The position numbers and the translations under genes are program-made. A stretch of DNA of 64,000 nt from Candidatus Bathyarchaeota archaeon (GTDB lineage Archaea > Thermoproteota > Bathyarchaeia > Bathyarchaeales > Bathyarchaeaceae), in NCBI GenBank assembly GCA_037386545.1, contig JARRLY010000006.1:24773-88772 (forward strand). Direction: 5' to 3'. Below, in pieces: positions 2,947 through 64,000 of the stretch (its first letter is position 1; the number at the start of each line of letters is the position of its first letter). The notes below the pieces were generated by a model that did no database searches, was not told the origin of the DNA, and worked only from the letters and a program-made list of their open reading frames with translations.

Positions 2947-3226
2947 TGTAATGAAAGCAATTGTTCAAGACCCCAAATTGAACAAGTAAACTCGTTAAGT
3001 TCTGAATTCAAATAACTTTTAAAGCAATCTAACAGGCGGTCACAGTATTGAGGTCATGTTGAGTAGTCTGATTGTAGAGTTCATTCTAAAATGGGTTCTA
3101 ATACATCATCAATAAAACCATCAGCAAAGTAAAATTCCCACTAAAAACTTTTTCATGAATGTAATTATTTGATATTCAAGTTTTTTTCGTATAAAAAAAT
3201 TAATACAGATACCGAAGGAGATTGTA

Positions 3227-8065: not shown

Positions 8066-8866
8066 TCATAAAACAAAAGCCCTAAAAAAAGTCTGCTTGC
8101 TTTTCTTTTTCGGCGAATCAGGAATAACCCATGAACCATCACAAACTGCAGAATTCAAATTGAAACTCTCTCGACAACAGCCAAACTTCATACCATTTTC
8201 TTCTATCACTCTTTTTGCTTGGTTCATCAAATCATATCGAAAAGCTTGAGGCAAATAAGTTGAACCCGAAATTCGATCCCCATCACTGAAATAATAAGGT
8301 TTTAATTTTTTTGCAATATCAGGAAAAACTGCACTAAACCGTTTCCAATTATCAGGTTTAATTTTATAACTTGAACAAGTAACATGTGAAACACCTAATT
8401 CTGCAACTTTTTTTACAAGCAAGCTCAAATCGTCATTGAGAAATGGAATAATAGGATCAATCCGAACTGTAGTTGGAATGCGGAAGTCAACAAGTTTTTT
8501 AATTGCAGCTAATCGCTTTGAAGAAACAGAAGCTCCAGGCTCAAGTTTTTTGCAAAGAGAATCATCTAAAGTCAAAACAGTAACAGAGACAACACAAGAA
8601 ATAGCTTGTAGAATGTCAATGTCTCGTGTTACAAGTTCAGATTTTGTGATTATCTGAAGTTTACAATTACTGTTCGCCAATATTTGGAGACAATCACGGG
8701 TAAGTTGTAGGTTCTTTTTGGGTCGACATTCATGAAAACGGGGAATGTACGAAGACGCATAACAATAAAGGCAGCCATGGTCACATCCCGTATAAGGGTT
8801 AAAAGTTAATTTAGATGAACATGTGCACATTGGAGACTTCCAAGGGTCAAATTCAGTTAGCAACAT
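8066..8866 (-). CDS. Radical SAM protein (SplB/COG1533-like)
   Basis: 'CDHGCLYCYA' CxxxCxxC cluster motif after 'FDPWKSPMCTC'. Confidence 0.75.
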   Translation of the reverse strand: MLLTEFDPWKSPMCTCSSKLTFNPYTGCDHGCLYCYASSYIPRFHECRPKKNLQLTRDCLQILANSNCKLQIITKSELVTRDIDILQAISCVVSVTVLTLDDSLCKKLEPGASVSSKRLAAIKKLVDFRIPTTVRIDPIIPFLNDDLSLLVKKVAELGVSHVTCSSYKIKPDNWKRFSAVFPDIAKKLKPYYFSDGDRISGSTYLPQAFRYDLMNQAKRVIEENGMKFGCCRESFNLNSAVCDGSWVIPDSPKKKSKQTFFRAFVL

Positions 8867-13138: not shown

Positions 13139-15349
13139 TTATGCTCTGTCGATGAATTTGTTGGCGCTTGGTACGTCTTCAGGAAGACCGCGTCGTTTGC
13201 GTATGCCTGCGATAACTTCGGCGGATATGCTTGCAGGAACTTTTTCCCAGTGGTCGAACTGTGTTTGCCAGAAGGCATGACCAGAAGTTGCACCACGCAT
13301 ATCTGCAGAAAGACCAAAAGTTTCAGAGACCGGCAAAAATCCAGTTACATTGGTTATTGGTCCTTTTTGTTCGGATGAAACTATTCGTCCTCGTTTGCGG
13401 GTTATCAATCCAGTTACATCACCAACGAATTGGTGAGGAACTGAAACACCAATCTTATAGATTGGTTCAGAAAGAACCGGGTCAGCAGTAAGGAATGATC
13501 CCCAAAGGGCTCGTTTCATTGCGGGCATGATTTGTGCAGGTCCACGGTGAACTGGGTCTTCGTGCAATTTACAATCCAATAAGCTTACTTTGCAGCCACG
13601 TATGGGCTCATCACATAAAGGCCCGTTTCGGGCGGCCCATCGGAAGCCTGAGTTGACTGTTTCCTTGACTTCTCGCAGATACTGAACACCTTTAGTCAAG
13701 TCCAACAAGATGTTGCGATGTTCTTCTAAAGCCCAAACGTTTCGGGATTCTTGGGCAGACCATCCTGCTTCTTCACGCAAAGTTTCACCGATTCGTTTGT
13801 TTCCCATAGCTTCAAATAAGGAACCCTTCTCCATCAAGTCAACAACATTTTGTTCCAAGGGTTCAACCTTAAGCCAGAATCTGCTGTGCTTGTTGGGGCT
13901 TTTTGCCATGGCAACCACACCTTCTTTGGCAGCAGTTTCCCTGTAAACAACCAATGGCTGAGAAGTAATGAGTTCTAGTCCATTGCCAGTTTGACGGAGG
14001 GTCTTTACAGCAATTTCGAGGTGAAGTTCACCCATTCCGCTAAGAAGGTATTCACCAGTTTCTTTGTTAATTTTAGTTACGAGGTTGGGGTCGTCAACAG
14101 TTAACCTGTCCATCAATTCGATAAGACGAGGCAAGTCACGTGGATGTTTAGGTTCAATTGCAATGGTGATAACTGGTTCAGAAACATATTGGATGTTTTC
14201 GAAAGGAACCATTTCATCTTCATAACCTACACTGACAAGAGTTTCTCCTGCACGTGCAAGATCCATTCCCAAAACGGCTGCAATGTTTCCAGATCCCATT
14301 TTGCCCACTACTTCTCGGAAGGCACCCATATACATGGATACTTGCTGGACACGGTAGTCTTTTTTTGCACCAACTAGGTAAACTCTGTCACCTTCGTTGA
14401 GGCGCCCTGAAAAGATACGCCCAGTTGCGACCAATCCTGCGTGGGGGTCCATAGCTGCTGAAGTTAAACACATTACTACAGGGCCATTTTCGTCACAATT
14501 AATCATGGCTTTTCCAATTTTCGAGTCTGCTTCACCTTTCCAAACTTTGGGAACACGATATTTCTGTGCTACTATCGGGTTTGGCAAGTTTTTAACAGCC
14601 ATATCCAGTATGGCGTTGTGCAATGGAGCTATTTCTGCTAGTTTTTCTTCAGTTCCATTTTGGTATGCGTCAACAACATCACTGAATTTTATTCCTGCTT
14701 TTTCTGCCTGGTCCATGGTGAATCCCCATTTGTGCAAAGCAGAGCCAAAAGCTACTGTTCCTTTTGTAGCATCAACTTTCCAGACGTTTTTGACTTCTTT
14801 TTCTCCGTAGATGGAAATAAGGTTGTTAAAGTCCCGAATAATTCGCAAAAGCTTTGTTTGCATCTGTTCTGCGTTAAGTTTGAGTTCTTTAATCAACCGG
14901 TCAACTTTGTTGATGAACAAAACAGGCTTAACACGTTCATTCAATGCTTGACGGGTAACGGTTTCTGTTTGAACCATTACTTCTTCGACCGCGTCTACTA
15001 CTACGACGGCTCCGTCGATTGCTCGCAGGGCACGGGTTACTTTTCCTGTGAAGTCTACGTGTCCTGGTGTGTCGATTAGGTTGATTACGTGGGATTTTTT
15101 ATCTACTTCATGGAGAAGAGAAATGTTTGCAGATTTGATTGTTATTCCACGTTTTTGTTCTTCTTCTAAGTAGTCTAGGGCTCTTGCTGCTCCGGCAATT
15201 TTGGGAGATAGAAGCCCTGCTTCAGCTAACAAGGAATCGGACATTGTGGTTTTGCCGTGGTCGATGTGGGCAATTATTCCGATGTTCCTGATGTCTTCTT
15301 TTTTGTTCATGAGCTTTACGAGGTCGCTCGTTTGCCTAAATTTTGGCAC
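13139..15349 (-). CDS. fusA: Elongation factor 2 (aEF-2)
   Basis: 'AHIDHGKTT', 'DTPGHVDF', 'NKVDR', and the diphthamide loop 'HEDPVHRGPAQ'. 736 aa. Confidence 0.97.
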   Translation of the reverse strand: MPKFRQTSDLVKLMNKKEDIRNIGIIAHIDHGKTTMSDSLLAEAGLLSPKIAGAARALDYLEEEQKRGITIKSANISLLHEVDKKSHVINLIDTPGHVDFTGKVTRALRAIDGAVVVVDAVEEVMVQTETVTRQALNERVKPVLFINKVDRLIKELKLNAEQMQTKLLRIIRDFNNLISIYGEKEVKNVWKVDATKGTVAFGSALHKWGFTMDQAEKAGIKFSDVVDAYQNGTEEKLAEIAPLHNAILDMAVKNLPNPIVAQKYRVPKVWKGEADSKIGKAMINCDENGPVVMCLTSAAMDPHAGLVATGRIFSGRLNEGDRVYLVGAKKDYRVQQVSMYMGAFREVVGKMGSGNIAAVLGMDLARAGETLVSVGYEDEMVPFENIQYVSEPVITIAIEPKHPRDLPRLIELMDRLTVDDPNLVTKINKETGEYLLSGMGELHLEIAVKTLRQTGNGLELITSQPLVVYRETAAKEGVVAMAKSPNKHSRFWLKVEPLEQNVVDLMEKGSLFEAMGNKRIGETLREEAGWSAQESRNVWALEEHRNILLDLTKGVQYLREVKETVNSGFRWAARNGPLCDEPIRGCKVSLLDCKLHEDPVHRGPAQIMPAMKRALWGSFLTADPVLSEPIYKIGVSVPHQFVGDVTGLITRKRGRIVSSEQKGPITNVTGFLPVSETFGLSADMRGATSGHAFWQTQFDHWEKVPASISAEVIAGIRKRRGLPEDVPSANKFIDRA

Positions 15350-19228: not shown

Positions 19229-19744
19229 GTGGTGCTTGGACGTTTCGATAGTTTCCCAAAAAACATTCACAAGGCAACAGTCTTCAATTACCAGGAACCA
19301 AAAACCAAACTTCAGCAAACAGTTCTTTGTGCCCTGCAGCGATTGAACAAGCAAACATTTACTCTAAACAGCATAATTCCTTTTTTTGAACAAGACTACA
19401 AAGTTAGTTTTGAGTTTGGAATAGCAGATGGATCAGATTTCATCTTTTTAGACGAAAAAGAACTTGAAAAAGATCTGAAAGCTCTTGACGAAAACGAGTT
19501 TGAAGTTTTAGATTTCTTTGTGGTTGTACGTTATCATAGAAGCAGTGATAAAGAAAAACAGATTCCTTTACGTTTTGATTACCATGTGTTGCGGTTCGCC
19601 TTTCACGAAAAAATTGTAGAGTTACTAATACGCCATGAGCGAGGAACACAACGAATCGCCACAGAAGATTTAGTTGAATTTTTAACCAAACAAGTAAACA
19701 TAGAACTCAAAAAAAGACAACTACTATTTTTAATTGCAGATTAA
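19229..19744 (+). CDS. Hypothetical protein
   Basis: ORF with coding-like composition. No family recognised. Confidence 0.4.
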   Translation: MVLGRFDSFPKNIHKATVFNYQEPKTKLQQTVLCALQRLNKQTFTLNSIIPFFEQDYKVSFEFGIADGSDFIFLDEKELEKDLKALDENEFEVLDFFVVVRYHRSSDKEKQIPLRFDYHVLRFAFHEKIVELLIRHERGTQRIATEDLVEFLTKQVNIELKKRQLLFLIAD

Positions 19745-19764
19745 TTTGTGCAAAAGCTTTGTTT

Positions 19765-20598
19765 TTAGGCAGATATATTTTTTTCATAATTTTTCAGTGC
19801 TTGAATTTCTTTTTGTCTAAAAGCATTTAGTCGTAAAATTAATTCGTCAAAATCAACAATTCTGCCGTCAAATTCTGGACCATCTACACATGCAAACTTA
19901 GTATTGTCACCCACAGTTATTCGGCAAGCTCCGCACATTCCGCAACCATCCACCATTATGCAGTTTAAGCTCACAACGGATTTTATTTCATAATTTTTTG
20001 CCAAGTCAACAACGGCTTTCATCATCAAAGGGGGACCAATGGCGTAAACTAAATCAAAATCATAGTGGTTTTCAATCAAATACTTCAACACATCGCTGAC
20101 TACGCCTTTGTGTCCTTTTGTGCCATCATCAGTAGAAATGTAAAGTTCATCGCTGTATTGTTTTATTTTGTTTTCAAAAATTAGCTGTTGTTGGGTTTGG
20201 GCACCAATAATCGAAATTATTCGATTACCTGCTTTCTTGAGAGCTTTAATAATATTGTAAGATGTTGCTACGCCAACTCCTCCACATACAACAGCCACAG
20301 TACCATAGTTTTTGATAACACTAGGAATACCCAAAGGACCCGAAACATCAAGGATTTTATCTCCAACTTTAAGTGCTCCAAGCAGTTTTGTTGTCAATCC
20401 AATTTCATCAAACACAAGGGTTATTGTTCCTTTATCGCGGTTCCAATCTGCAATAGTTAAAGGAATGCGTTCACCTTTTTTGCGTACTCGAAGGATCACA
20501 AACTGTCCGGGTTTTGATTTTCTTGCAATTAAGGGTACTTTGATTTCTAGCTGTTTGATTTTTATAGCAAGTTGGTTTTTCTTGATTATTTCGTACAT
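19765..20598 (-). CDS. FAD/NAD-binding 2Fe-2S oxidoreductase subunit (NfnA/SudB/PyrK-like)
   Basis: FNR-like 'KPGQFV.LR' and 'RIPLTIAD'. C-terminal 'CGMCGACR....CVDGPEF' 2Fe-2S motif. Confidence 0.8.
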   Translation of the reverse strand: MYEIIKKNQLAIKIKQLEIKVPLIARKSKPGQFVILRVRKKGERIPLTIADWNRDKGTITLVFDEIGLTTKLLGALKVGDKILDVSGPLGIPSVIKNYGTVAVVCGGVGVATSYNIIKALKKAGNRIISIIGAQTQQQLIFENKIKQYSDELYISTDDGTKGHKGVVSDVLKYLIENHYDFDLVYAIGPPLMMKAVVDLAKNYEIKSVVSLNCIMVDGCGMCGACRITVGDNTKFACVDGPEFDGRIVDFDELILRLNAFRQKEIQALKNYEKNISA

Positions 20599-23643: not shown

Positions 23644-23721
23644 GCTCCGATAGTATAGCCAGGTTAAGTATTTCGGCCTTTCGAGTCGAAGACCCGGGTT
23701 CGAATCCCGGTCGGAGCACCA
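23644..23721 (+). tRNA. tRNA-Glu (anticodon UUC), CCA encoded
   Basis: Acceptor GCTCCGA/TCGGAGC. Anticodon arm TCGGC-CTTTCGA-GTCGA. T arm CCGGG-TTCGAAT-CCCGG. Discriminator A followed by CCA. Confidence 0.9.
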
Positions 23722-27072: not shown

Positions 27073-27165
27073 GGGTCCGTAGCTTAGCAAGGAAGAGCAA
27101 CTTGCGCCTAAAGCACCGGGCTTTTAACCCGGGGGTCAGGGGTTCAATTCCCCTCGGACCCGCCA
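27073..27165 (+). tRNA. tRNA-Lys (anticodon UUU) carrying a ~16-nt insertion (putative non-canonical intron) near the D-arm/anticodon-stem junction; CCA encoded
   Basis: Acceptor GGGTCCG/CGGACCC. D arm GCTT-AGCAAGGAA-GAGC. Anticodon arm CCGGG-CTTTTAA-CCCGG. T arm AGGGG-TTCAATT-CCCCT. G then CCA. It is 93 nt where ~77 is expected, and the extra 'ACTTGCGCCTAAAGCA' lies at about 27099-27115. Confidence 0.8.
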
Positions 27166-29927: not shown

Positions 29928-30411
29928 TTTTTTTCACACCTAAGCTCCACTAATGCTCAAAATACAGTAACGTTTACTTAATTTATCAACCTTGTGCGGC
30001 ATGGGTTTGGATATTAAATCCAGTTAACCAATTATCAATAGAAGTATTGTTCTGTTTTATTGACACTTACTACAGATTTAACCAGATTTTAAATGTAAAT
30101 GAATATTTATTACAAAAAATAAATATTATTAAAACTTCAATAAACAAAATATTAACTGTTTTTGTGTTTGGAACTTGATTTATCTACGTTTCCATCATAA
30201 TTACTAGTTAAAGCACAATGTTTAACAAATCAAGTAAATCCAGCCTGGAAATGATTCTAATAATTTTTGGAGCACTACTTTATTGACCAGTGCTTGTGGT
30301 GCACTTTCAATGCAGTCCATAATACACTTAAAATAACTAATTTCAGCAGTTAAGACCTTTTAAGAAATGAAAAATTTAAGTACAAGACCGTTGATTGTTA
30401 CGGAATTGAAT

Positions 30412-30486
30412 GCCTTGGTAGTATAGCTAGGCCTAGTATAGGCGGCTGTCGCCCGCCCGACCCGGGTTCAAATCCCGGCCAAGAAT
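30412..30486 (+). tRNA. tRNA-Asp (anticodon GUC)-like gene with mismatched terminal acceptor pairs; no encoded CCA
   Basis: D arm GTAT-AGCTAGGCCTA-GTAT. Anticodon arm GGCGG-CTGTCGC-CCGCC. T arm CCGGG-TTCAAAT-CCCGG. The acceptor GCCTTGG versus CCAAGAA pairs only 5 of 7 positions (G1/A72 and C2/A71 are mismatched). Confidence 0.6.
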
Positions 30487-39864: not shown

Positions 39865-40627
39865 CTAGTCTTCAAGTTTTGTAAGCTTTATTGTTCCGCC
39901 TTTTTCTTTAATCATTTCAGTAAGTTGAGAAAGGGCCTTGTTAACACGGTTTTTTGCAGCTTCAGAATCCTTGGCAGTAGTAGAAACATGAAACTCAATA
40001 ACCGGAGTGGTTTCTGCCCCTCTTGGATGAGATTTTATGTAAACGTAAGGATTGTCTTTCATTAAAACATCCACAGATGGTGCCATTTCTGACTCCATAA
40101 CATTTACATATGCCTTTCATTTCAGAAGGCACTCCCGGAAGAGCAAATATGGTAACCTCTTTGTGCTTTATCATTACCCCAGGGGCGGTTCCAACCGGAT
40201 TAGCAACTGGTTCAGAGCACTCAGGAATTTTAGCCATCTTCACTCGATGAGACGTCAACTTGATTTCTTCCACTTTGGTTTTTTGGGCGTAGATACGATA
40301 TTTTTCTGTAACCATCTTCAAGGCTTGATCGTCAACTATGGTTTGGCAACCTAAAGCTTGGGCGAGCCCTTCTAAGGTCATGTCGTCAAAAGTTGGACCC
40401 AGGCCACCTGTGGTTAAAACAAAAATGGGTTTGCGTTGGATTGCTTCTTTTATTGCCATTGATATGTCAGGGAGGTTGTCCCCTACAACAGTAACACGTT
40501 TAACGGTTAAGCCTAAAGCGGTGACACGCTTCGTCAACCATTGGGCATTGGTGTTTAGGGTTTTACCTATGAGTAGTTCGTTTCCAATGCAGATTATTTC
40601 TACAAACGGATTCGTTATGTCCCCAAC
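39865..40627 (-). pseudogene. CinA-like / MoCF-binding domain gene lacking a canonical start and split by a frameshift
   Basis: The conserved N-terminus 'VEIICIGNELLIGKTLNTNAQW' is in frame with an upstream TAG, and no ATG/GTG/TTG precedes it. The frame switches near 40110-40117 ('PGVPSEMK' in one frame, 'MESEMAPS...VYIKSHP' in another). Confidence 0.7.
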
Positions 40628-44518: not shown

Positions 44519-45409
44519 TTGGAGAAACTTTCCATCAAAACAAGGTCAGCCATGACCCGCATTTGTTGCAAAGAAATCTTTCATTGTAACGCAACCGTAG
44601 AAGAAATTGTAGACAACATACGTTCCTTTGTGAGCAAATTCATTAATAGCGAAAGTTTCGCGGCTAGAGTTCGAAGAATAAAAGGCACAGCCCGAGAAAT
44701 TGACCGAGTTTGGCTCGAAGGAGAAATTGGGGCAACAATCCTTGAGACTGTTTCATCGTCTAAAGTTGATTTGTCGAATCCACAAAAAACCTTCTTTGGG
44801 GTTTTGACAAATAACAGGTTTGTTTTTGGTTTGAAAATTGCGGAAATCAACCCTAAACAGTTCTTGGAAAGAAGACCCCGAAAAAGGCCCTTCTTTCATC
44901 CGACTGCAATGCAAGCTAAACTTGGACGAACAATGGTTAATTTGGCTCAGCCAAAAACTGGAGATTTAATTTTGGACCCCTTTTGTGGAACAGGAGGAAT
45001 GCTCATAGAAGCAGGTCTAATGGGTTTTCGGATTATTGGATTTGACGCAAAACCTCACATGCTCCGGGGAGGAGTAAAAAACATCAAACATTTTGGAGTA
45101 GAAGCTGAAGGCTTTGCCATAGCTGATGCTCGTTGCCCACCAGTAACTAAGGTTGATTGCATAGTTACAGACCCTCCCTACGGCAGGTCAGCAAGCACAT
45201 TAGGCGCAAAAACCCGATACATTGTAGAAGACTTTCTAGCCGGAATTGGAGATTCGTTAAGCAAGGGCGCCAAGATTTGCATGGCAGCTCCAAAAAAGAT
45301 TCACATAAGCGAAACTGCAGAAGCGGCAGGCTTTAAGCATCTGGAATCTCATTTTGTTTATGTTCACAGAAGCTTGACCCGAGAAATCGTAGTTTTTGAA
45401 AAACTGTAA
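44519..45409 (+). CDS. THUMP-domain tRNA (guanine-N2)-methyltransferase (Trm11/TrmG10-like)
   Basis: 'ILDPFCGTGGMLIEA' motif I and 'VTDPPYG' motif IV. Confidence 0.75.
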   Translation: MEKLSIKTRSAMTRICCKEIFHCNATVEEIVDNIRSFVSKFINSESFAARVRRIKGTAREIDRVWLEGEIGATILETVSSSKVDLSNPQKTFFGVLTNNRFVFGLKIAEINPKQFLERRPRKRPFFHPTAMQAKLGRTMVNLAQPKTGDLILDPFCGTGGMLIEAGLMGFRIIGFDAKPHMLRGGVKNIKHFGVEAEGFAIADARCPPVTKVDCIVTDPPYGRSASTLGAKTRYIVEDFLAGIGDSLSKGAKICMAAPKKIHISETAEAAGFKHLESHFVYVHRSLTREIVVFEKL

Positions 45410-47618: not shown

Positions 47619-48045
47619 CTTTAAGCACCTTGGCAACTAACTGAATAATCTTGTTTTTCAACTGCTTTATACTTCCCTCATTTATTATCATGTAATCAGC
47701 AACAGAAATCACAGACCCCATACCAATCCCAAGTTCTCGAAGGTCACGCTGTATGAAAGTTTCCCAGTTTAGGGGGTCATCGCTTCGTTTTCTGTTAACT
47801 AACCTTTTATACCGCGTTTTGGGCGAAGAATGAATTGCAACTAAAACAAAATCAGGAAAATGTTTTTTGAATTCTTCAACTTCAACTAGACTGCGGATTC
47901 CGTCGATAACCACCATTTTTCCTGTTTTTTGTTTCAAGGTTGGAACACACTGCTTCGCTATGGCTGCTGGACCATCTAATTCTCTTAGATTAAGCATCAC
48001 TTTGCCCAGATTTTCAGGTGTGGCTTTGAGGTTTCGTCTTTTCAT
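47611..48045 (-). CDS. UPF0200 / dephospho-CoA-kinase-like protein, apparently 5'-truncated (no P-loop)
   Basis: 'ENLGKVMLNLRE', 'VVIDGIRS..EV..F' and 'AIHSSPKTRY.RL' match the family. The N-terminal ~35 aa with the GxxGxGKS P-loop is absent, and no P-loop is encoded in any upstream frame. Confidence 0.6.
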   Translation of the reverse strand: MKRRNLKATPENLGKVMLNLRELDGPAAIAKQCVPTLKQKTGKMVVIDGIRSLVEVEEFKKHFPDFVLVAIHSSPKTRYKRLVNRKRSDDPLNWETFIQRDLRELGIGMGSVISVADYMIINEGSIKQLKNKIIQLVAKVLKDD

Positions 48046-48369: not shown

Positions 48370-48975
48370 ATGAACAATATTATGGACAGTTACGAGAGAT
48401 TTGTTATGTCAGGAACCATCCGAACATTCTTAGCGTTTGACATCGAAGACCAAAAAACACTTCAAAGAATCTCACATGCTCAAAAACGAATATCGAACAG
48501 TGGTGCAAACTTGAAAATAGTTAAACCTCAAAACATTCATGTTACAATCAGATTCTTAGGGGACATACAGCCCTCCATGGTTGATGCTATTCATGAAGAA
48601 ATGAAGCAAATCTCGTTTTCTTCGTTTACCATAGAACTAGAAGGTCTAGGGGCATTTCCCAAACCCAGTTATCCACGAGTTGTCTGGGCAGGAATCAAAA
48701 AAGGCGCAGAAGAACTCAAAGACGTTTTTCAACAACTAGAACCATGTCTCAGAGGACTAGGATTCAAAGCTGACACCAAAGGCTTCAATCCCCATTTGAC
48801 CATAGCTCGGGTGCGGGGTGGAAGAAACAAATTCAGATTAGCAGAAGTAATTCAAGAAATGCTAAATTATGAGTTCGGAACAATCAAAGCAGAATGCCTA
48901 AGGTTAAAAAAGAGCAATTTGACACCTCGAGGTCCAATTTATACGAATATAAGAGAAGTTTGTGCAAAAACGTAA
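48370..48975 (+). CDS. thpR: RNA 2',3'-cyclic phosphodiesterase (ThpR/LigT, 2H family)
   Basis: Two HxT motifs, 'HVTIRFLG' and 'HLTIARV'. Confidence 0.85.
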   Translation: MNNIMDSYERFVMSGTIRTFLAFDIEDQKTLQRISHAQKRISNSGANLKIVKPQNIHVTIRFLGDIQPSMVDAIHEEMKQISFSSFTIELEGLGAFPKPSYPRVVWAGIKKGAEELKDVFQQLEPCLRGLGFKADTKGFNPHLTIARVRGGRNKFRLAEVIQEMLNYEFGTIKAECLRLKKSNLTPRGPIYTNIREVCAKT

Positions 48976-48991
48976 TTGTTTGGTGGTTGTT

Positions 48992-50292
48992 GTGTCTTAT
49001 TCTTTTGAAGAAATCCGATGTCAGGTTCTAAAACGAGTTACCCCCAGCGAAAGCGATTTAAAGATAGCCCAGAGATTGATGTGTTTATGCAGGTTTCTGA
49101 GTCTGTTCCCCGAGAAGAGTTTGGCACAGTTTTATTGGAGGTTGCAAAAGAAGCCACCAAAGATTATGACCAGATAGAAAGATACGCCGAGCACCCTTAC
49201 ATCGAAGCGGTTACGGATGATGGAGTTTACTTGAATGTGGTTCCTTGTTACAAAATAAAACAAGGTAATCTGAAAAGTGCAACAGACAGAACACCGTTCC
49301 ATACAGATTATGTTAAAGCGCATCTTACGGAAAAAATGTCAGAAGAAGTCAGGTTACTTAAACGGTTCATGAAAGGAATCAACACGTATGGTGCAGAAAT
49401 CAAAATTGGAGGCTTTAGCGGATACCTTTGTGAACTTTTGGTTTTAAATTTTGGTTCTTTTCTTGAGGTTTTACGCTCTGTTGCAGACTGGAAACAAAAA
49501 ATAGTCATAGACACCGAAAAACAATACAAACAAACAGAAACTCTCAAGAAAAAATTTGTTGAACCTATAATCGTAGTTGACCCCGTAGACAAACAAAGAA
49601 ACGTGGCAGCCGCTGTAAGACCACAAAAACTAAACGAATTCATTGCAGCATCACGAGAATTCCTAAAAACTCCTGAAATAAAGTTTTTTTATCCACCCAA
49701 AACCAAAGCCCTAACTCAAACTGAACTCCTTGAAACCATACCTGAACGTGGTTCTTGTTTAGTTTTCATAAAGTTTAAAGGAAAAACTACTACTGTTCCT
49801 GACGTTTTATGGGGACAACTTTACAAAAGCCAAAAAGCCATACAAAAAATTATCAAACAAAATGACTTTACAGTTTTGCGGAATGCAGTTTGGAGTAACG
49901 AAAAAAGTTTGAACCTTTTCGTGTTTGAATTAGAAAATCGTTTGATTCCAAACATGAAACTTCAGTTAGGTCCACCTCTTACCAGAAAAGTAGAATGTGA
50001 AAAGTTTTTGCGAAAACATCTAGGTTCAAGTTTGACTGTTTGTGGACCTCGAATAGAAAAAAGCCGCTGGGTGGTAGATGTGAAACGGGATTACATTGAC
50101 GCTGTTGTATTGTTGAAGGCAAAACTGGGTGATGGCGGCAAACGTGAAGGCGTTGCAGATATTGTTGCTAAAGCAACTGGTTCCCTAGAAATATTGATTA
50201 ACAATGAAATTGTGTCATTTTATTGTGCAGATTCTGGTTTTGCAGGCTTTTTGTCCCAGTTTCTTGATGGAAAACCGTTGTGGTTAAGTTAA
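48992..50292 (+). pseudogene. cca: Class I (archaeal) CCA-adding enzyme with an out-of-frame internal deletion near the N-terminus
   Basis: The N-terminal helix 'SYSFEEIRCQVLKRVTPSESDLKIAQ' is in one frame. The body 'EIDVFMQV...AEHPYIE...RTPFHT...GFSGYLCELL...VVDPVD..RNVAA' is in another. The ~30-35 aa that should carry the GS..A..T.L motif are missing at about 49070. Confidence 0.75.
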
Positions 50293-61768: not shown

Positions 61769-62052
61769 TTTTAAACCAATTTTAAATTATGATATTTAAT
61801 TAATTGAAAAACTAAGTTGAGATAAGTGCTTAAACGTTATTATTATAATAGAGGGCCCATGTTGAAAACGGCCTTTTTTCTAAAAATTTCTAATCCTAAG
61901 GTTTCAAAATTATATAATAATACGTAACATGTTGCCTCACGATTTAATATTCAAATAATAGAGAAATATAGTAGTATGCATTGATTTGAGGGCGCGTGTG
62001 TTATGGACTCCAAATCCTTTGATATTGAAAAAACTGTAATCCAGTTGGTCAC

Positions 62053-63733: not shown

Positions 63734-64000
63734 TTTGTCTACCCCAAATTCTGAAAATGGTTAGTTGATGTCTTTCAAAATTCTGTTAAGGCATAATTAG
63801 AAGTTAAAATTTATCCAAACAACATCTTCGAACAATGTATCGGCTTTTTTCCTTAATTGTTTCAAATTCATGTTTACAACTTAGTATTTTCCAAGAAGAC
63901 AATCCTTCTTCTATTCTTTTTTTGATATTAGGATTTGAAACTAGATGCCCTTTCCCAAAATTTAGGTCGGGTGCAAGAACAATTGTTCCTTTTGAAATGT

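Follow-up and report, generated by a model that had tools for sequence, protein, structure and literature searches.

Does the archaeon represented by this contig lack an intact CCA-adding enzyme, or does only its deposited sequence lack one? The question arises from a window of 64,000 nucleotides, the whole stretch of DNA that was analyzed, in which the cca gene is interrupted close to its 5' end while neighboring tRNA genes encode their own CCA. The earlier note on this window had connected the two observations and proposed that tRNA genes with a templated CCA relax selection on cca. Our comparison with sister contigs suggests a different answer. In all likelihood, the 118 nt missing from cca reflect an artifact in the assembly or deposit of one contig, not a pseudogene and not a consequence of relaxed selection. 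Judging from the sister sequences, the species has an ordinary intact class I enzyme of 482 aa, encoded directly after thpR, with both the GS motif and the E-x-D carboxylates present.

The features of the locus are the following.

48370..48975, forward strand: thpR, encoding a LigT-type RNA 2',3'-cyclic phosphodiesterase, intact (two Pfam PF02834 matches, 2.9e-29)
48962..49057, forward strand: 5' fragment of cca, the native GTG start and codons 1-32 in the native frame, V/MQKRNCLVVVVSYSFEEIRCQVLKRVTPSESD
49018..49020, forward strand: ATG that opens the annotated 424-aa ORF, whose stop lies at 50290-50292
49057..49058, forward strand: deletion junction D7 in cca, where the window lacks 118 nt that all sisters have; no microhomology
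49058..50292, forward strand: 3' fragment of cca, from the last two bases of codon 72 to codon 482 and the stop

In an alignment to a 99%-identical ENA contig, 118 nt are absent from the window cca between 49057 and 49058, and apart from this gap the contig aligns with the window base for base. The breakpoint, which the earlier note had suggested locating by alignment to class I enzymes, is therefore placed exactly at 49057|49058, and the out-of-frame internal deletion that it had read from the sequence is confirmed as a clean gap. In terms of the 482-aa protein, the lost segment comprises Q33-W71 plus one base, the first of codon L72 (QKKVQTLANSLTRKVEQVAKIMGVKVDARTEGSVAKNTW), and it opens with C-A8-G. 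The GS nucleotide-binding motif falls inside it, as had been predicted, whereas the predicted size of 30-35 aa was too small: the loss amounts to 39 codons and 1 nt, which shifts the frame. As a result, no single uninterrupted frame runs from the native start. The frame of GTG 48962, which overlaps thpR by 14 nt, reads MQKRNCLVVVVSYSFEEIRCQVLKRVTPSESD, then continues as nonsense and reaches a stop at 49175-49177. The 3' fragment (..KDSPEIDVFMQVSE.. to the stop at 50290-50292) is in the +1 frame relative to the 5' fragment, the frame changing at the junction. When the intact sister protein (P0001) was used as a tblastn query, its residues 1-39 aligned at the 5' fragment in frame 2, and residues 72-482 aligned on the 3' fragment in frame 1 with 99.3% identity. 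The DNA of the 5' fragment is that of the sisters but for one base. Searches by blastn and tblastn found neither the missing 118 nt nor residues 33-71 elsewhere in the window. The remaining cca, which has no other lesions, and the upstream thpR look intact, in agreement with the earlier reading; the exact 201-aa thpR sequence is present in JGI assemblies, and the order thpR-cca-mgtC is common to all sister loci.

An exact protein look-up identified the 424-aa product as GenBank MEJ2243351.1, from an 89,397-bp Bathyarchaeota MAG contig. This ORF begins MSGSKTSYPQRKRFKDSPEIDVFMQVSE... at ATG 49018, and its start lies 18 residues ahead of the EIDVF strand. The product retains the catalytic carboxylate E/D-x-D strand, EIDVF at 49072-49086, which aligns to EIDVF of the Archaeoglobus fulgidus enzyme, and Pfam assigns it the neck (PF09249, 2.7e-45) and the C-terminal domain (PF21133, 5.4e-24). 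It is without the helices and strand 1 of the head domain, without the GS motif, and aligns to A. fulgidus Cca from residue 45 onward only. Pfam gave no match to the nucleotidyltransferase head domain PF01909 in this product, as against 26.6 bits (cut-off 21) in the intact sister allele. Compared with what a functional class I member should have, the window copy thus possesses the carboxylates, the neck and the C-terminal domain and lacks the head domain, both as the PF01909 match and as the GS motif. A complete head domain in the product from ATG 49018, which the earlier note had named as an observation that would speak against its deletion, is not retained. The intact allele resembles the known enzyme throughout: residues 15-410 of P0001 align to residues 3-375 of A. 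fulgidus Cca (PDB 1R89; E = 4.8e-66), and it shares with that enzyme the GS motif, the E-I-D carboxylate strand and the combination of PF01909, PF09249 and PF21133. Unlike A. fulgidus Cca, the window copy misses 39 head-domain codons and is frame-shifted.

The 118 nt are present in every sister contig that covers the site. All nine independent conspecific contigs, at 98-99.9% nucleotide identity, carry the segment within an uninterrupted 1449-nt cca that encodes the 482-aa class I CCA-adding enzyme. They come from three ENA assemblies (ERZ27252208/-234/-253), five JGI assemblies (3300056970, 3300076656, 3300056863, 3300076657 and Ga0272441) and the Logan assembly of SRR21285606. A genuine pseudogene should show its lesion again in other, independent data of the lineage, and this lesion was seen in 0/9 of these contigs. 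The earlier note had said that about 100 extra nucleotides in a sister at this site would overturn its interpretation; the nine contigs have 118, and these restore the frame. Protein data agree with the DNA. In the cluster at 90% identity, the 424-aa form occurs on the window's own contig only, and the other members, from JGI and ENA, have 482 aa (or 475 aa with an alternative start). Relatives at 60-86% identity are uniformly ~470-482 aa long, most of them with all three domains. The exact protein look-up found the deletion allele nowhere else. A 37-mer across the junction was absent from metagenome_contigs and from genome_contigs, which is a weak result, as a positive-control 40-mer matched one contig in the former and no contig in the latter. 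A 7197-bp ENA contig, considered as a second case of a broken cca, was rejected: its gene is split into three ORFs by single-base homopolymer frameshifts, and the 118-nt segment is still present.

The cca gap is one of a series. Sister contigs aligned along the window reveal nine window-only deletions, and the eight besides the cca gap (D7, listed above) measure 51-419 nt.

3206..3207: D1, 51 nt, intergenic, upstream of a wHTH gene
8705..8719, junction at ~8719: D2, 97 nt, in a radical SAM gene between imperfect repeats (266 aa in the window, 293-298 aa in relatives)
30483|4, after 30483: D3, 66 nt, 3' end of tRNA-Asp
40108..40109: D4, 74 nt, inside a gene with a MoCF_biosynth domain, frame-shifting
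44531..44532: D5, 141 nt, in-frame, near the 5' end of an N6_N4_Mtase/UPF0020 methyltransferase gene (296 aa in the window, 343 aa in sisters)
48042..48043: D6, 419/420 nt, N-terminus of an AAA_17/AAA_18 kinase-like (P-loop kinase) gene and the intergenic stretch upstream of thpR (144 aa in the window, 174 aa in sisters)
62051..62052: D8, 97 nt, start of a class II fructose-bisphosphate aldolase gene (369 aa in the window, 402-418 aa in relatives)
63816..63817: D9, 136 nt, 3' end of a 145-aa gene and intergenic sequence

D8 and D9 are each defined by one sister contig (L019, ENA ERZ21831104), and D3 by a single one (L014) from the suspect sister MAG described below. The contig thus contains at least nine similar private deletions, a density of ~1 per 6-7 kb over the ~55 kb of the window that could be compared. 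Seven of the nine damage genes of unrelated function, tRNA-Asp among these, and where gaps fall in the radical SAM and aldolase genes, the GenBank proteins of this contig do not reach the length of any relative. The lengths of three deletions are divisible by 3, which is the proportion expected without selection. Such a set, with many similar private lesions irrespective of gene function, is what an artifact should leave behind.

The borders of the deletions carry further information. At eight of the nine junctions, microhomology is limited to 0-1 nt, so that the microhomology expected of a biological deletion or of a k-mer collapse is missing. Neither replication slippage nor de Bruijn collapse would be expected to leave such junctions, whereas joins made without overlap would. 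In addition, an A/T run of at least seven (7-8) lies within -15..+25 nt of the left border in six of the nine deletions, compared with a background of 3.6% of positions (binomial 1.6e-7, an optimistic value since the test was defined post hoc). At the right borders the count is 0/9. This asymmetry is a large effect, and its restriction to the left border looks technical. The window contains no Ns. Deletions aside, the closest sisters (99% identical) align with the window over 7,000-11,000 nt with zero or one gap, so that the contig does not have the pervasive errors of a raw long-read assembly.

Another MAG of this accession series, from the same strain, shows the same kind of damage at other places. 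This MAG, GCA_037386585.1 (JARRLX01...), shares 99.7-99.8% identity with the window. At least one deletion is private to it, 150 nt of aEF-2 (window 14146-14295) that are present both in the window and in an ENA contig. The MAG also lacks the 178 nt at window 30096-30273, a difference that could go in either direction, as no third contig covers the site. D3 of the window is not present in it, and the contig with its cca begins only at window 49201, which lies 143 nt rightward of the D7 junction. Each of the two MAGs therefore has at least one large private indel in an essential gene. Two near-identical MAGs whose large indels do not overlap point to a faulty assembly step rather than to two viable strains. 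A literature search with the WGS prefix of the sister MAG found no paper. The private deletions of the window share several traits with known assembly errors in MAGs: they are 50-420 nt long, show little microhomology, are blind to gene function, are not reproduced elsewhere and are associated with homopolymers, and contigs of other assemblies break near the same places. They depart from the typical case of such errors in the lack of Ns and in a homopolymer bias at the left border only, which is not attributable to a named tool.

The series of deletions also reaches into the tRNA genes, the other half of the original argument.

23644..23721, forward strand: tRNA-Glu(UUC), templated CCA at 23719-23721, ending ...GGAGC-A-CCA
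27073..27165, forward strand: tRNA-Lys(UUU), templated CCA at 27163-27165, ending ...GGACCC-G-CCA
30412..30483, forward strand: tRNA-Asp(GUC), truncated at its 3' end by D3, with an Rfam match at model positions 3-68 only

The templated CCA of tRNA-Glu and tRNA-Lys is as the earlier note had described it. For tRNA-Asp, which it had listed as lacking CCA, the description holds for the window and fails for the native gene. The window copy is without CCA because D3 removes 66 nt at its 3' end; its acceptor end is mismatched, and it scores 38 bits in Rfam versus 61-63 bits for tRNA-Glu and tRNA-Lys. The sister copy ends ...CCAAGGC-G-CCA. With this truncation recognized, the contrast between the tRNAs disappears, and all three tRNA genes here template CCA natively. 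The tRNA-Lys(UUU) gene has an insertion of ~18 nt in its D-loop region, and an ARAGORN call of Leu(taa) at the same coordinates was rejected as a misfold. The earlier note had called templated CCA unusual for archaea, which is not borne out by survey data: it is found in 30.4% of archaeal tRNA genes and in 50.5% of those of Crenarchaeota, and some archaeal lineages come near 100% (PMC5143459).

Outside the gap, cca has no further stop or frameshift. Against the sister consensus, the window copy has 3 synonymous and 2 non-synonymous codon differences, which are too few for a formal test. One of the 2 non-synonymous differences is common to four sisters, and the substitution V138I (ATA at codon 138 in the window), otherwise private to the window, is shared with the sister MAG GCA_037386585.1. 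At the level of its codons, the gene outside the gap shows no sign of decay or relaxed constraint.

From the gaps, their borders and their absence from other assemblies we infer a technical cause. Stretches of 50-420 nt would have been dropped at many points of the contig and the two sides joined directly, one drop falling in cca and another taking the 3' end of tRNA-Asp including its CCA. Scaffold gaps that were closed or stripped without leaving Ns are one candidate cause. Others would be stretches of zero coverage that were left out of the consensus, or a polisher or gap closer that acted too aggressively at homopolymers. On its own, a de Bruijn assembler is unable to produce a k-mer across a junction that the reads do not contain. 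In a workflow free of scaffolding, gap closing and polishing, the junction molecules must therefore have existed, either as real deletions or as library chimeras. Real molecules would mean that the strain lost a functional enzyme and then gained the ATG through the T>A change at 49018, and that a population-wide deletion process, anchored at homopolymers and free of microhomology, operates in this archaeon; we regard this as very unlikely. A real and very recent private deletion in one strain, which would have produced a fresh cca pseudogene or a 424-aa protein from the new ATG and would be tolerated via tRNA-templated CCA, deserves somewhat more weight and is still improbable. The sequence was deposited in this form and annotated as a 424-aa protein, and the tRNA genes for Glu, Lys and, in the sister, Asp template CCA. 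In Escherichia coli, all tRNA genes encode CCA, the cca gene serves repair only and is dispensable, and cca mutants are viable. By this analogy, a cca-null strain would not be absurd, since all three tRNA genes of the locus template CCA; the likeness covers these three genes. The A at 49018 is also a point in favor. It is a window-only substitution, T in 9/9 sisters, that turns TTG into ATG in the downstream frame and is synonymous in the native frame (CGT to CGA). Window-unique substitutions make up ~0.1-0.3% in well-covered parts, and ~2% of the possible single-base changes in that stretch would make an ATG. A change creating an ATG beside the gap would be an unlikely coincidence if the gap were purely technical, although it was spotted post hoc. 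No other observation points in the direction of a truncated allele that is real and expressed. Low coverage at contig edges might be expected to concentrate base errors near the junctions, but in the well-covered part of the window, window-unique substitutions show no clear enrichment there, and 49018 is the only one within 60 nt of a junction. The main difficulty is that the cca gap would not stand alone. The eight other disruptive deletions in 64 kb would need to be real too, including the loss of the tRNA-Asp acceptor end and of the aldolase gene start, and so would the 50-codon aEF-2 loss in the sister MAG. About 1/10 of the genes would be broken in a genome that is nevertheless 99.7-99.9% identical to intact relatives. 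Moreover, the allele occurs in no other assembly searched, and its product would have to do without the GS motif and a PF01909 match.

Decay at the level of the lineage, in which CCA-templating tRNA genes let cca erode in this archaeon as a whole, is less probable again, and we consider it scarcely credible. That each of the three tRNA genes at the locus templates CCA would suit this reading. However, all other conspecific contigs, and the relatives at 60-86% identity too, have an intact cca, in which respect the species is unlike E. coli cca mutants, and the few codon differences come with no lesion outside the gap. Archaeal lineages that template CCA in most of their tRNA genes are known, moreover (PMC5143459). 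Relaxed selection on cca, the central proposal of the earlier note, is thus not supported: the gene is whole in nine sister contigs, and the gap is one of at least nine private deletions in the contig. The bare difference in length would also allow the opposite polarity, with the window ancestral and the sisters carrying an insertion (a mobile element, an intron or an intein-like element), or a ribosome that bridges the gap by frameshifting or bypassing. To these readings we give practically no credence. The residues encoded by the 118 nt can be aligned one for one with those of A. fulgidus Cca (EGSVAKNTWLKDSPEIDVF versus VGSYARNTWLKGSLEIDVF), and they restore the PF01909 match; the length of the segment is not a multiple of 3, and the window holds no other copy of it. 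Nor can a frameshift recreate 39 missing residues. An intron, an intein, a sister insertion and a programmed frameshift were rejected on these grounds, the segment encoding conserved residues of the head domain. An artifact of assembly or deposit, by comparison, accounts for the cca gap and the truncated tRNA-Asp together with the other window-only deletions.

The biological weight of the cca gap itself is small, since cca is normal in the species. Should the gaps prove real, this would be a noteworthy case of an archaeon that lives with no intact CCA-adding enzyme. The wider consequence concerns the use of such contigs. In two MAGs of one accession series, segments seem to have been dropped at intervals of a few kilobases, and gaps of this kind create false pseudogenes and a false tRNA without CCA. 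Inferences on gene loss, pseudogenization or tRNA ends drawn from them would be wrong. Truncated proteins from this contig are already in GenBank, among them a 424-aa 'CCA tRNA nucleotidyltransferase', the 266-aa radical SAM protein and the 369-aa aldolase.

Beyond the gaps in cca and tRNA-Asp, the contig carries seven further deletions seen only in the window, each of 51-419 nt, at the following junctions:
3206/7, window-only deletion
~8719, window-only deletion
40108/9, window-only deletion
44531/2, window-only deletion
48042/3, window-only deletion
62051/2, window-only deletion
63816/7, window-only deletion

Window-only deletions shorten a radical SAM protein, a MoCF_biosynth-domain protein, a methyltransferase, a P-loop kinase-like protein and fructose-bisphosphate aldolase, and the GenBank deposit holds the shortened proteins that they create. 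An A/T homopolymer of 7-8 nt lies at or just after the deletion start in six of the nine window-only deletions, against a background of 3.6%. These left borders belong to D1, D2, D4, D5, D7 (the cca gap) and D8. None of the nine right borders checked has such a homopolymer (0/9), and the bias is one-sided, falling on the left border.

Three further features of the window are referred to below:
27073-27165, tRNA-Lys(UUU)
30412-30486, tRNA-Asp(GUC), with the deletion junction at 30483/30484 (sister copy, L014 1359-1436)
48043-48370, break-prone stretch near which contigs L001, L005, L006 and L007 end

At tRNA-Asp(GUC), the 66-nt window-only deletion removes the discriminator, the templated CCA and the final two bases of the acceptor stem. 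The copy in the sister MAG (L014) is complete and ends in ...CCAAGGC-G-CCA. In cca, the window contig alone carries A at 49018, the substitution that gives the annotated 424-aa ORF its ATG; all nine sisters have T (9/9), and read in the native frame of cca the substitution is synonymous. In several independent assemblies, contigs end no more than a few hundred bases from the region upstream of thpR and the start of cca, and therefore this AT-rich stretch, with its A/T runs, seems to be generally difficult for assembly.

A 7197-bp ENA contig of the same species (proteins P0129, P0132, P0134, P0146) has cca broken into three ORFs and thpR joined to out-of-frame sequence. Both lesions arise from single-base shifts at A runs, and the 118-nt cca segment is retained. 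These lesions look like homopolymer indel errors, different in kind from the window deletions. Window-unique substitutions are densely clustered at two sites, with 9 in 44 nt at 45199-45242 and ~40 in 1 kb at 19522-20537, compared with ~0.1-0.3% elsewhere. The dense clusters look like strain mosaicism, recombination tracts or a chimeric assembly of strains.

The sister MAG GCA_037386585.1 (L010, L014) lacks 150 nt of aEF-2 (window 14146-14295) and 178 nt of intergenic sequence (window 30096-30273), both present in the window. The final 597 nt of L014 (9961-10557) gave no match to the window, whereas the JGI contig L015 stays collinear with it past the point where L014 diverges, which suggests that the sister MAG is misjoined or rearranged here.

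ARAGORN called 27073-27165 a 93-nt tRNA-Leu(taa), a misreading of tRNA-Lys(UUU). The full Rfam model aligns there, with the anticodon loop CUUUUAA. This tRNA has a templated CCA and ~18 extra nt in the D-loop region, and the insertion is probably a non-canonical intron.
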